From contig JBEKIW010000002.1 of NCBI GenBank assembly GCA_050011565.1, positions 288,001 to 352,000 on the forward strand: 64,000 bases of DNA, given 5' to 3'. This document shows, in pieces, positions 18,087-21,059 of this stretch (position 1 is its first letter; each line of letters starts with the position of its first letter). Source of the DNA: Dehalococcoidia bacterium (GTDB taxonomy: Bacteria > Chloroflexota > Dehalococcoidia > GIF9 > UBA5629). The notes below the pieces were generated by a model that was not told the origin of the DNA, searched no databases, and saw only the letters and a program-made list of their open reading frames with translations. Position numbers and translations under genes: made by a program.

Positions 18087-19268
18087 ATGGTAAAAAATAC
18101 GGTAAATCGGAAACGCGCCAAAGTCGCCACTGCCAGTGTAGTGAGCGACGTGGAAAAAGAACTTCTTATTGCTGATAAAGTTTGTTCGGTGGAAAAGTCC
18201 ATGGTAATCGAAAACCACCAAAAAGGATGGTTCTGCGCCGCTATATGCTCCGACGGCAGTATGTTCATGGATGAAGCTGATTCGCCGGTCCGCATTCTGG
18301 AGATACTCAGCGGAGCCGTCATTGCCTGGGTGGACTTTCGCACCAACGATTTTGAGAAAGAAGCCTGCATTGCCGGCACACTTCTTGGGTTCAGCGACCA
18401 ACTTATTTCGTCGCTAAGTGGAGACTCTCGCCTGCTGTACGAAGACTTAAATACCGAGATGGGCCTAAAGCTTCCCTCCATTCAGATCCGGCTACACGAA
18501 CACCCTGACGTGCAGACTCACACCACACTACTTCTGCTGAGAAAGAACCTGATTCTAACCATTCACCCGGTGGATGTAGACCGTAGATTCAGCCGTCTGC
18601 GCCGGTATTCCAGTAAAGTATTGCAGAAAATACCTATCGATGCCTCTCCCGAAGACAAATTGACCGTATTGCTCATACGCATAGTCGACCAAAATAACGA
18701 CCGCAACTTTGAACACTTACGCCAGATTGAGGAACACGGCGACGAACTGAACAAACGTCTGATGAACCCCGAAACTCCGCGCACCATACTCGGGCCGGAG
18801 ATTTATGGCATGAAACACGCACTTATCAGCTACCTGAATGCACTATGGGAGACGGTTGATGTACTACACGATGTGCGTTATGGGGACGCCGAGATCATAT
18901 CTGATAACACACGGCTGCTGGAACAAGTAGGGCTGCTGGCTGAGAATGTAAAGCAGCAGATAGGTCTGGCCGAGCATTTATCCGAGGTACTGGCTTCGGG
19001 GCTGGAAGTATTGCAGTCGATTTACAACAATCAACTGCAGGTTCTTAACAACAAAATGGCGATGATTATGACCTATTTGACCATACTTGGTACCGCCGTG
19101 CTTGTCCCCAATACACTGGCCACGATCTTCGGCAACTCGGCTTTCGCCATGACGCCAGGTGATAGAGGCTGGTATGTAGCTCTATTGGTTGTATCTACTG
19201 TTATAGCCACCTACCTCGCCTTCTGGTGGGCCAAGAGGTCAGGCTGGTTTCCTAAAAAGATGGATTGA
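18087..19268 (+). CDS. CorA/ZntB-family divalent cation transporter (divergent)
   Basis: Long helical soluble domain, then LNNKMAMIMTYLTILGTAVLVPNT and two C-terminal TM helices; GMN signature missing; start uncertain. Confidence 0.75.
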   Translation: MVKNTVNRKRAKVATASVVSDVEKELLIADKVCSVEKSMVIENHQKGWFCAAICSDGSMFMDEADSPVRILEILSGAVIAWVDFRTNDFEKEACIAGTLLGFSDQLISSLSGDSRLLYEDLNTEMGLKLPSIQIRLHEHPDVQTHTTLLLLRKNLILTIHPVDVDRRFSRLRRYSSKVLQKIPIDASPEDKLTVLLIRIVDQNNDRNFEHLRQIEEHGDELNKRLMNPETPRTILGPEIYGMKHALISYLNALWETVDVLHDVRYGDAEIISDNTRLLEQVGLLAENVKQQIGLAEHLSEVLASGLEVLQSIYNNQLQVLNNKMAMIMTYLTILGTAVLVPNTLATIFGNSAFAMTPGDRGWYVALLVVSTVIATYLAFWWAKRSGWFPKKMD

Positions 19269-19320
19269 GTTCTTGCGTCTGCTTCCCATCCATCCTATGT
19301 CAAATTGATAGTTGCCTTAT

Positions 19321-19656
19321 TTACAGGCTGACTATATCGTTATCCATCATAGACTGTATGGATTTCATCATGTTTGTCGGTTTGCCGACTGCCAGTTTAT
19401 CCGTCAGCTCAAAGTGTTCCAGGCAGGTGGTGCAGGACAGAAGCTCCACGCCCTGTTCTTCAAGCTGTTTCAAACGGTGCAAAACTGGAGAGCCTTCACA
19501 CGCAAGGCGCACTCCCGTATTCCAGAATATCATACTGTTCGGCTTATCTTCGCTTTCACCGAGCAATCTAAAAAAATTAGACATGAGCATGGAGCCCAGT
19601 TGCTCGTTCCCTCTTCCAAGTCCTTCCGATTGGATAAGAAATACCTTATGTGTCAC
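19321..19656 (-). CDS. yedF: YedF-like selenium-metabolism protein, DsrE-domain-only form
   Basis: LGRGNEQLGSMLM..FF..L, IFWNTGVRL, LEEQGVELLSCTTCL..F.L, VGKPTNM; GTG start with GGAGG RBS. Confidence 0.85.
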   Translation of the reverse strand: MTHKVFLIQSEGLGRGNEQLGSMLMSNFFRLLGESEDKPNSMIFWNTGVRLACEGSPVLHRLKQLEEQGVELLSCTTCLEHFELTDKLAVGKPTNMMKSIQSMMDNDIVSL

Positions 19657-19685
19657 ATCTAACCTCCCTGTTGTTAATTTTTCAT

Positions 19686-19726
19686 AAATAAAAAAGCGAT
19701 GGCCGAGAAACTCCGCACCATCGCTT
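19686..19726 (-). terminator. Intrinsic terminator (attenuator) in the yedF leader
   Basis: Minus strand AAGCGATGG-tgcggagtttctcgg-CCATCGCTT followed by TTTTATTT, about 30 nt upstream of the yedF start. Confidence 0.85.
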
Positions 19727-19749
19727 CAGGAGGCATTCTGTAAAATGCA

Positions 19750-19875
19750 CTAAACAGCCATAAGCCTCCTGATATTACGGAAACGGAGGTTCTGCGAGCA
19801 AATGACTGATGCAAAACTTGCACCCAGCCACTTGGCTCAAACTCAAGTGAACTGAAGATACAGTGCCTCAGTCAT
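19750..19875 (-). CDS. Putative selenocysteine-containing leader peptide, 41 aa with UGA read-through
   Basis: SD AAGGAGGTGA 5 nt before the ATG at 19875; MTEALYLQFT-UGA-V-UGA-AKWLGASFASVICSQNLRFRNIRRLMAV-UAG; UGA codons at 19843-19845 and 19837-19839. Confidence 0.75.
19795..19839 (-). promoter_or_regulatory. Bacterial SECIS-like stem-loop
   Basis: UGA + 11 nt (GCCAAGUGGCU) + GGGUGCAAGUUUUGCAUC; lower stem CAAGUGGCUG/CAGUCAUUUG; resembles E. coli fdhF SECIS (UGA + 11 nt + GGUUGCAGGUCUGCACC). Confidence 0.75.
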
Positions 19876-19927
19876 TGCTCTCACCTCCTTTACATTTCTA
19901 GTCATTCGCGTTGGCAAATGTCGACGA

Positions 19928-19936
19928 ATTATAACA
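19928..19936 (-). promoter_or_regulatory. Extended -10 promoter for the leader-yedF transcript
   Basis: Minus strand TG-T-TATAAT about 40 nt upstream of the leader RBS. Confidence 0.6.
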
Positions 19937-19994
19937 TCAATAAGCTGTTTGCGCTAATTATCTGTAAGGATGCGCATTAAAAGTATTCTGAAGC

Positions 19995-21059
19995 CTACTT
20001 CGCCTGGCTCAGCCGTTTCTTGAGGTAGTCGATGGCCTTTACCGGCGTGGGGTCTATCTCGTTGAGTATGGCCAGGTAATAGCTAACCCAATCGCCGAGG
20101 TAAATCAGGCCCATCATCTGACTCAGTTCATTTTTGCCCTGGCTATCAATGGTCTCGTGGCTGATTCCGCTCTGCTTTAATAGCTCGCCGGTAACCTGGT
20201 AGCGAATCAACATTCGGGGGTGCAGGGATGGAGAGCGGAGCATGACTACATATATTCTGGCGGCTAGTTCCCGGGGGAACTGGTAGCCGACGACAGCGTT
20301 GTGGTTAAGCTCGGAGAAAGTTTCGTAGAAAGCCGAGGCTTTGCTGTTCTCGTTAATTTGCGTTTTCCAGCGATGGGCGACCTCGGAGACAATACCGGCG
20401 CCGTAAATGACAGCTATCTTACCATCCAGCTTGGCAGCCAGTTGCTTGGCTGTGTTTGAGCCCGTGGGCACGGTCTCCTTTAGCTCGCCAAGCAGCTTAT
20501 CCAGGTCTTGAATCATCGCCTTGACCTCGGCCGTTTTGTCTTCAATGAGGTTCAGCTTTTGCAGGAAAGCTATGAGTGGCATGAAGCTGTAGCCCAGTGC
20601 CGCCCGCGGTTGGCCTTCATAGTCGATTTCGAAAACGGGCACCCCGGCATCTTCAGCCAGCTCCTTTAGTCTGCCGCCCGTGGTCATAACCAGCTTTTTA
20701 CACCTCTTCTGTAAAGCCTGAGAAAAGGCAGACAGCGTTTCCTCGGTATTTCCCGAGTAGCTAGAAGCAATTACCAGCGTCTTTTCGTCAACAAAAGCGG
20801 GCAGGTCATAATCGCGGTTAACGAAAATAATCGGTTTCTTTTTCGATGAAAGCAGGCTGCGGACTAAATCGCCGCCTATGGCCGAGCCGCCCATTCCCAG
20901 AACCACTACTTTATCGACGTTCCTGTAATCTTTGGGCAATTGGAATCTTTCAGCTTTGTTCCAGGCGGCGCGGCACTGCCGGGGTAAGCCATGAAGGTGC
21001 CCCCGCATGTTTGCCGGGTCGAGCTGTTTATATAGTTGAATGTCGTCTAAATTGACCAT
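19995..21059 (-). CDS. Bifunctional phosphoglucose/phosphomannose isomerase (SIS-domain type)
   Basis: GMGGSAIGGD, SYSGNTEET, QPRAALG, RWKTQINENSK, ELNHN. Confidence 0.93.
   Translation of the reverse strand: MVNLDDIQLYKQLDPANMRGHLHGLPRQCRAAWNKAERFQLPKDYRNVDKVVVLGMGGSAIGGDLVRSLLSSKKKPIIFVNRDYDLPAFVDEKTLVIASSYSGNTEETLSAFSQALQKRCKKLVMTTGGRLKELAEDAGVPVFEIDYEGQPRAALGYSFMPLIAFLQKLNLIEDKTAEVKAMIQDLDKLLGELKETVPTGSNTAKQLAAKLDGKIAVIYGAGIVSEVAHRWKTQINENSKASAFYETFSELNHNAVVGYQFPRELAARIYVVMLRSPSLHPRMLIRYQVTGELLKQSGISHETIDSQGKNELSQMMGLIYLGDWVSYYLAILNEIDPTPVKAIDYLKKRLSQAK

Follow-up and report, generated by a model that had tools for sequence, protein, structure and literature searches.

A leader element upstream of a yedF-like gene in a Dehalococcoidia bacterium (GTDB lineage Bacteria; Chloroflexota; Dehalococcoidia; GIF9; UBA5629) is probably a ribosome-mediated transcription attenuator that uses selenocysteine (Sec) codons as its regulatory codons, a reading to which, judging from comparative sequence evidence, we give a probability of roughly 0.55. 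The window, i.e., the whole stretch of DNA that was analyzed, comprises 64,000 nucleotides (nt) of assembly GCA_050011565.1 (contig JBEKIW010000002.1, positions 288,001 to 352,000). Coordinates in the window are counted from its first letter, and all features of the element lie on its minus strand. An earlier note, made from the letters of the window, had proposed such an attenuator. The analysis presented here supports that interpretation at the sequence level, although a different segment of the RNA would act as the antiterminator.

The leader element and its proposed switch

The leader open reading frame (ORF) extends from an ATG at 19875 to a TAG at 19752-19750 (19875-19750; 41 codons, including two UGA), and its translation is MTEALYLQFT-U-V-U-AKWLGASFASVICSQNLRFRNIRRLMAV. 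It is preceded by the Shine-Dalgarno sequence (SD) AAGGAGGTGA at 19890-19881. The two UGA codons, UGA1 (codon 11, 19845-19843) and UGA2 (codon 13, 19839-19837), are followed by an apical stem-loop (19824-19808) with G19817 and U19816 in its loop. This stem-loop is the upper part of a hairpin resembling a selenocysteine insertion sequence (SECIS), which spans 19838-19796 overall and whose lower stem pairs 19838-19824 with 19809-19796. Next come a hairpin of UCAGGAGG (19772-19765) with CCUCCUGA (19733-19726), which encloses the leader stop codon, and an intrinsic terminator composed of a 5' arm GCGATGG (19724-19718), a conserved apex GCGGAG (19716-19711), a 3' arm CCATCGC (19702-19696) and a T6 run (19695-19690). 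The SD, the two-UGA ORF, the hairpin after the UGAs and the terminator had all been described in the earlier note, and each was recovered at the same position, with the ORF translation exact. The terminator is predicted by both RNAfold and RNAalifold; a simple scanner missed it because its loop exceeds 8 nt. The complete leader (286 nt) folds at -98.2 kcal/mol, with z = -4.15, and none of 200 shuffles was as good.

The pairings follow a 1:2 / 2:3 / 3:4 layout that, read from the sequence, is that of a trp-type attenuator. Region 1 consists of the SD and the start codon: the 5' strand of helix H1 (19888-19883) pairs with 19790-19785 (97-99% of cells in the alignments described below), and the 5' strand of helix H2 (19880-19868), which lies over the start codon, pairs with 19809-19796. 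Region 2 (19809-19783) comes after the SECIS-like hairpin and includes CCUCCGU; its first part, 19809-19796, is common to H2 and the lower stem of the SECIS, and its second part is ACCUCCGU (19790-19783). The terminator supplies regions 3 and 4, one from each half, and region 2 is complementary to its 5' arm and conserved apex.

It is this region 2, i.e., the SECIS-stem strand and CCUCCGU, that takes the place of the antiterminator of the earlier note. There, the antiterminator strand had been put under a ribosome standing at the UAG, whereas region 2 would be passed over by the ribosome on its way to that codon. The pairing originally envisaged, between the 3' arm of the terminator and AUGGCUG of codons 39-41, was rejected, as inspection by eye showed it to be lost in copies L032 and L077. 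A pairing of CUCC with GGAG (19732-19729 with 19714-19711) was likewise rejected as an antiterminator, given that it comprises only 4 bp.

In the computed fold of the free RNA, regions 1:2 and 3:4 pair, so that the leader SD and AUG are hidden and transcription would be terminated. A ribosome that loads during transcription would read ten codons and then meet UGA-GUU-UGA, with a SelB-type hairpin at the right distance. SelB would read this hairpin, and the time the ribosome spends at the UGAs would keep region 1 occupied. With the stretch from SD to UGA occupied, region 2 would pair with region 3, no terminator would form, and the selenium genes would be transcribed. With plentiful Sec-tRNA and SelB, on the other hand, both UGAs would be passed quickly, the ribosome would move over region 2 to the stop codon, and the terminator would form. 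Our best guess, from modeled folds and by analogy, is that scarcity of Sec would switch the operon on and a plentiful supply would switch it off. This direction is favored because only that ribosome position removes the terminator in silico and because yedE is induced by selenium starvation elsewhere: its mRNA rises by 5.3 log2 in selenium-depleted Methanococcus maripaludis, according to passages of PMC11097638.

Recurrence and conservation of the leader

BLAST found the leader in 7 of the 76 other genomes of the family, all of them in the bacterium's own genus (7 of 13 genus relatives). A search pattern consisting of the hairpin and CCTCCGTT, without the TGAs, yielded 27 metagenome and 8 genome-collection loci, labeled as uncultured Dehalococcoidales, Dehalococcoidia or Chloroflexota. 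Together with the loci from earlier genome searches, this gave 43 loci, which correspond to 29 distinct sequences once identical duplicates are merged; 27 of these are full length, and the incomplete L066 and L074 were excluded from the alignments. UGA1 is present in all 29. Covariance models added eight distant copies. Model R1, of the 5' domain, found five in other families of the class (5/150 other genomes), one in another class (1/150 other genomes of the phylum) and one further copy in this second class (making 2/66 of its genomes), while model R2 found the eighth, L143, before yedE. A covariance search of the bacterium's own order returned copies in its own genus only, plus two weak matches that belong to the type II variant described below. 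No second copy of the leader was found in the bacterium's own genome, and Rfam gave no match over 19000-20400 other than a chance-level sR40 (E = 1.3) on the other strand.

The resulting 35 full-length copies, from two classes of Chloroflexota, present a strong SD in 35/35 and a start codon that is ATG in 34 and TTG in one. UGA1 is in frame and is TGA in every copy, including the 27 obtained with the TGA-free pattern, and is preceded by 10 codons in 32 copies, 8 in two and 9 in one. The UGA2 position is TGA in 32/35, with CGG, TGG and CGA once each and TAA or TAG never, which leaves UGA-NNN-UGA in 32 copies and a single UGA in three. The ORF has 36-46 codons and ends in TAG (27 copies), TAA (5) or TGA (3). 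Given that the terminal stop drifts among the three stop codons while the internal UGA is constant, UGA1 does not appear to be read simply as a stop. The earlier note had tied its reading to the UGAs and the frame being conserved in homologous leaders, and this conservation holds in other families and in another class as well.

RNA structure was assessed on two alignments, A1 with 27 copies and A4 with 34. In A1, the closed fold combines the pairing of the SD and CCUCC, the stem between the start codon and 19809-19796, the apical hairpin, the UCAGGAGG/CCUCCUGA hairpin and the terminator. It presents 97.0% of cells paired, and has 6 pairs and 12 cells changed on both sides. In 500 shuffles, the observed numbers of cells paired and of cells with a change on each side were never matched, the pair count was matched twice, and slid controls had at most 49% of cells paired. 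In A4, the 5' domain presents 95.5% of cells paired and compensatory changes at 8 of 24 pairs, three of them in the apical hairpin. The same helices were predicted unaided by RNAalifold. Compensatory changes are found in H2 at 3/13 pairs (27 copies) and 4/11 pairs (34 copies), in the apical stem, which is 98% paired, at 3/7 pairs, and in the UCAGGAGG/CCUCCUGA hairpin, which is 95% paired, at 2/8 pairs. This last hairpin is missing in L067 and L098, and other hairpins replace it in distant copies. The leader SD is retained in 34/34 aligned copies. A terminator stem with T-run was located in 34/35 copies, the pattern having found none in L143, and has 99.5% of cells paired and one compensatory pair; the 5' side of its apex, GCGGAG, is conserved and the 3' side is variable. 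In L105:1600-1860 (G174), a repeat of about 43 nt has been inserted twice between leader ORF and terminator, and both the terminator and the 2:3 complementarity are retained.

As an alternative to H2, 19809-19796 can form the 43-nt SECIS-like stem with 19838-19824; this stem is about 90% paired across copies, and a register shift in L033 retains it, as judged by eye. The loop GU is invariant (34/34), as are the columns of the start-codon UG and of UGA1. Counted from UGA2, the loop GU is at +22/+23, and counted from UGA1, at +28/+29. In the bacterium's own genome, the SECIS of fdhA likewise has its GU at +22/+23, and selD has a G-rich loop at +19 to +23. As far as sequence can tell, the hairpin would qualify as a bacterial SECIS, being directly 3' of an in-frame UGA with a loop G/U at a fixed distance. 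The recurrence of the leader with its key features kept, the z value of its fold and the covariation are far beyond chance.

The switch itself was assessed on 34 copies, with L143 left out of the count because its terminator was not located by the pattern. The minimum free energy fold of the free RNA has the terminator in 34/34 copies. When the 5' part was blocked through UGA1+12, the terminator was lost in 26/34; in controls with region 2 shuffled, it was lost in 11% of folds. Among 11 diverse copies, 2:3 duplexes have a mean energy of -20.2 kcal/mol for cognate versus -16.1 kcal/mol for non-cognate partners (permutation P = 0.0002). The matches differ by lineage: L103 has 9 bp without a mismatch, and in L105 the two regions match at 12 of 13 positions. 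Shuffles of single-pair duplex energies gave weak signals, with z between +0.1 and -3.9.

The genes found behind the leader vary. They include the C-terminal half of YedF (YedF-C) directly, or a double-cubane reductase (NF040772, 510 bits) followed by YedF-C; in L098 the reductase is followed by an activase (TIGR00241) and then YedF-C, and in L128 by the activase. Elsewhere, an ArsP_1/SaoE-like permease stands behind the leader (with YedF-C next in L125), as do a YedE/FdhT-like protein in L105 and yedE in L143. All identified downstream genes are selenium-linked, and finding one leader before differing selenium-linked genes is as a regulon-wide sensor would predict. The ancestral operon is double-cubane reductase, activase and YedF-C, in this order. 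In the literature, passages of PMC5322559 list dehydratase-subunit and activase genes among the STRING neighbors of YedF, and according to passages of 10.1101/2022.07.06.499078, 955 of the 970 NF040772 proteins with high scores belong to SelD genomes.

Two of the assemblies present irregularities. That of G003 (L060/L035), a single contig, has the double-cubane reductase gene twice, and both occurrences are interrupted by runs of N. In reality, pgi is probably followed by the leader, the reductase and yedF, in which case the assembly would contain a scaffold misjoin. In L127 (G150), the reductase behind the leader reads for 192 aa and is followed by an unrelated 358-aa ORF, which may be an interruption or an assembly problem.

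A shorter leader, here called type II as opposed to the type I leader described so far, was observed before yedE (TIGR04112, 483 bits) and a separate TusA-like N-terminal half of YedF. Its loci are L137:1501-1586 (G009) and L136:247-332 (G029), as well as L138, L139, L141 and L142. It presents the SD AAGGGGGUGAC, an AUG, 7-8 codons and a single UGA, followed by a GAUGCA/GGUGCAC hairpin with a G-rich loop and a CCCCU anti-SD. Since no T-run terminator was seen in L137, type II control may act on translation. The type II pattern found no such leader in 24 of the 30 yedE loci of the class.

Weighing the readings

A number of results weigh against the attenuator reading or limit the evidence for it. 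Within the genus, the leader is missing in 6 of 13 relatives, although 5 of these 6 retain yedF; orthologues of the gene were found in 12 of the 13, and in G010, which has no leader, yedF was not found either. In the fold computations, the terminator persists in 8/34 copies despite the blocked 5' part. Furthermore, when a 30-nt footprint was placed at UGA1 only, with region 1 free to pair, terminator probability stayed at 0.76-0.98 (19 copies); since footprint-only folding shows no switch, the switch needs region 1 to be unavailable. Strict base-pair covariation between regions 2 and 3 is absent within the genus, because the search pattern fixed CCTCCGTT, and CCUCCGTT is likewise fixed by it. 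The presence of selA in 10 of the 10 leader genomes tested counts for little, given that selA is found in 299 of 401 genomes of the class. As for decoding, the UGAs are putative Sec codons. The lack of new stops gives P = 0.083 when codons 14-41 are considered alone, and the distant copies are no test of read-through, since all three of their frames are open from UGA2 through CCUCC. The main threat, however, is release factor 2 (RF2): under low Sec, release at the UGA could restore 1:2 pairing and hence termination.

This last point leads to an alternative with the same sensor and the opposite wiring, in which Sec-rich read-through turns the operon on, release at the UGA turns it off, and the genes handle surplus selenium by efflux or detoxification. 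Given that the free RNA left after RF2 release has the terminator in all 34 copies, low Sec could indeed mean off. Two of the regulated genes, moreover, encode ArsP/SaoE-like permeases, a family described as efflux pumps in passages of 10.1101/2022.07.06.499078, and YedE has been floated as an exporter in parts of PMC5322559. We nonetheless consider this wiring unlikely. No fold was found in which a ribosome past the UGAs blocks the terminator, the only candidate being the 4-bp CUCC:GGAG pairing; with the ribosome at the stop codon, terminator probability is 0.64-0.99 (19 copies); and the M. maripaludis yedE is induced, not repressed, by selenium depletion in the passages of PMC11097638 cited above.

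Somewhat less likely again is a leader in which the UGAs act as ordinary stop codons. It would be a 10-codon upstream ORF with its second UGA as a back-up and the hairpin as a pause or regulatory structure, and it would report general translation or RF2 activity instead of Sec. This is hard to reconcile with a UGA1 that is TGA in 35/35 copies while the terminal stop drifts, with substitutions of UGA2 that always give a sense codon a single step away and never TAA or TAG, with a loop GU that is invariant and as far from the UGA as in a SECIS, or with downstream genes that, where identified, are all selenium-linked. The P value of 0.083 for codons 14-41 and the post-UGA frames, which differ among distant copies, are nevertheless in its favor.

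It is improbable that the element acts as an untranslated RNA, whether as a SelB-binding operator like the Escherichia coli selAB 5' leader or as a riboswitch for a selenium compound. The element is indeed highly structured, with covariation, and the fold of the free RNA hides its SD and AUG. Yet the sequence from AUG to UGA1 is free to vary while being always 24, 27 or 30 nt long, stop-free and in frame (35/35), and no Rfam family matches. Evidence that the ORF is translated also comes from the genus set. There, the only indels in the ORF are of 3 and 6 nt, whereas the spacer from SD to AUG tolerates a 2-nt deletion and many indels of 1-2 nt follow the stop. Newly gained stop positions number 0 in frame 0, 7 in frame 1 and 4 in frame 2, and the absence from frame 0 has P = 0.03 in a neutral simulation on the tree. 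A 49-codon ORF in minus-strand frame +1 (19674-19823) also overlaps the leader and crosses the terminator; it is not conserved, with sporadic stops in 9 of 27 relatives.

The peptide encoded by the leader does not appear to be its product. Parsimony changes number 66, 76 and 89 by codon position, without the third-position excess of coding sequences; residues 3-8 are freely variable; and the residues that are conserved all coincide with conserved RNA helices. In L102, L104 and L105, the C-terminal peptide is unrelated because the post-UGA frame is shifted relative to the RNA. A phmmer search against 1.84 billion representative proteins returned only two matches, both repeat-derived, and no Cys homologue. 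A small functional U-x-U selenoprotein working with YedF and the reductase, with the terminator setting the product ratio, would account for the strong SD, the conserved start and UGAs and an operon shared with sulfur/selenium-transfer proteins, but it is very improbable in view of these results and of a UGA2 that becomes Arg or Trp and never Cys. Since the peptide is unconserved and without relatives, the element is taken to be a regulatory leader and not a selenoprotein gene.

Genomic setting, related systems and significance

The gene downstream of the leader (19656-19321, minus strand; GTG start; SD GGGAGG at 19668-19663) encodes a protein of 111 aa. It had been called YedF-like in the earlier note, which is borne out by a match of 130 bits to TIGR03527 (YedF), but only for the C-terminal half: given that the match is limited to model positions 85-189 of 194, the gene corresponds to the DsrE-like half alone. 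Pfam DsrE matches the product weakly. No TusA/SirA-like N-terminal half (CPxP) was found upstream of yedF in any frame, including by family model. A degenerate TusA domain in the 219 nt preceding yedF was considered and rejected, as no frame resembles TusA and the family model finds nothing there. The leader ORF shares its frame with yedF, which is taken to be a coincidence because other copies precede other genes. YedF is thus split in this lineage: the C-terminal half (111 aa) stands alone behind the type I leader, and the TusA-like N-terminal half (73 aa) is a separate gene beside yedE in relatives (L137:2810-3031).

Upstream of the locus lies a gene for a bifunctional phosphoglucose/phosphomannose isomerase, and downstream of it a CorA-like gene in convergent orientation. 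An extended -10-like motif, TGTTATAAT (19936-19928, minus strand; read directly), is a possible promoter of the leader itself. The earlier note had called a promoter here, and the motif is indeed present; however, no usable -35 accompanies it, and a two-hexamer promoter scanner gave no call. TGnTATAAT/TATACT-like motifs are also found in L029 and L032. In L028, L030 and L060, the leader adjoins pgi without such a -10 site. Several relatives have the leader SD overlapping or directly next to the stop codon of pgi, with no promoter of the leader's own visible, and in G003 the pgi frame continues into the leader. The leader of these pgi-abutting relatives would be transcribed from pgi.

The bacterium's own genome is 2.0 Mb long and 99.2% complete, and contains no yedE. 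It encodes the Sec machinery that the earlier note had expected: selA, selB, tRNA-Sec and a selD with one TGA are clustered on contig C4. Four selenoprotein genes each have one in-frame TGA and a SECIS: fdhA (G000 C1:400413-402404), with SECIS loop GGUCU; mvhD/FlpD (G000 C1:336343-336711), with UGGAA; a peroxiredoxin (G000 C2:194205-194582), with UGGUGUC; and the selD just mentioned (G000 C4:46992-47918), with CGGGA.

The nearest known systems are trpL and hisL of E. coli, the leader-peptide transcription attenuators of amino-acid operons. As in these, a short translated leader with tandem regulatory codons is combined with three pairings, 1:2, 3:4 and a proposed 2:3, that end in an intrinsic terminator, the free RNA is predicted to terminate, and the sequence of the leader peptide is unconstrained. 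Unlike in these, the regulatory codons are UGA, which would need a SECIS hairpin and SelB in the leader and would compete with RF2; the role of region 1 falls to the SD and start codon of the leader instead of the regulatory codons; and region 2 also serves as the 3' strand of the SECIS stem. For the standard amino acids, leader-peptide attenuation is well established. Since SECIS and SelB would be needed inside the leader, an attenuator built on a recoded stop would be a new solution.

In E. coli, a SECIS-like element in the selAB 5' leader is reported to be bound by SelB and to repress translation (Thanbichler and Böck, 2002). There too, a SelB-type hairpin outside a selenoprotein gene feeds selenium status to selenium-pathway genes, but that leader has no translated UGA and no terminator, and it is the initiation of translation that is controlled. 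The hairpin of the present element comes after in-frame UGAs of a translated leader, and the output would be a terminator. In the autoregulation of prfB, RF2 is sensed by +1 frameshifting within the gene. The prfB sensor is also an in-frame UGA preceded by an SD-like sequence, although without a SECIS, a terminator or a link to selenium.

A selenium-dependent, translation-coupled transcription inside the gene is described for fdhF(Sec) of Treponema primitia in passages of PMC3892789. According to these passages, ribosome progress through the Sec UGA decides whether transcription continues, as proposed here, but the control lies within a selenoprotein gene, has the opposite polarity (without selenium the transcript is truncated), and has no dedicated leader, antiterminator or terminator. 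In the same passages, the authors state that attenuation keyed to a rare amino acid was unreported in nature. The earlier note had left the novelty of its proposal to a literature check. No Sec-codon leader or attenuator was found in the open literature, with subscription journals and supplements being outside the scope of the search, and a term search within a 2026 selenoproteome review (PMC13188914) returned no such element. A Sec-codon leader would be a novel form of leader-peptide attenuation.

We give about even odds to a broader proposal, namely that the Chloroflexota Sec-codon leaders, both type I (U-x-U with a terminator) and type II (one UGA, before yedE), form a family that acts as a master sensor of Sec-tRNA supply and as genuine attenuators for the 21st amino acid, and that the genes it controls define a selenium-acquisition regulon. 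Under this proposal, the double-cubane [8Fe-9S] reductases would, together with their activases, belong to selenium assimilation. If the attenuator reading is true, the element would be, as far as found, the first dedicated cis-acting bacterial sensor of Sec supply, as well as a compact natural part for selenium-responsive or recoding-responsive switches. The long-open question of how bacteria sense their selenium status would become directly testable. For the biology of these bacteria, the leader would provide independent regulatory evidence that the enigmatic double-cubane reductases, split YedF, YedE and an ArsP-like permease act jointly in selenium handling.

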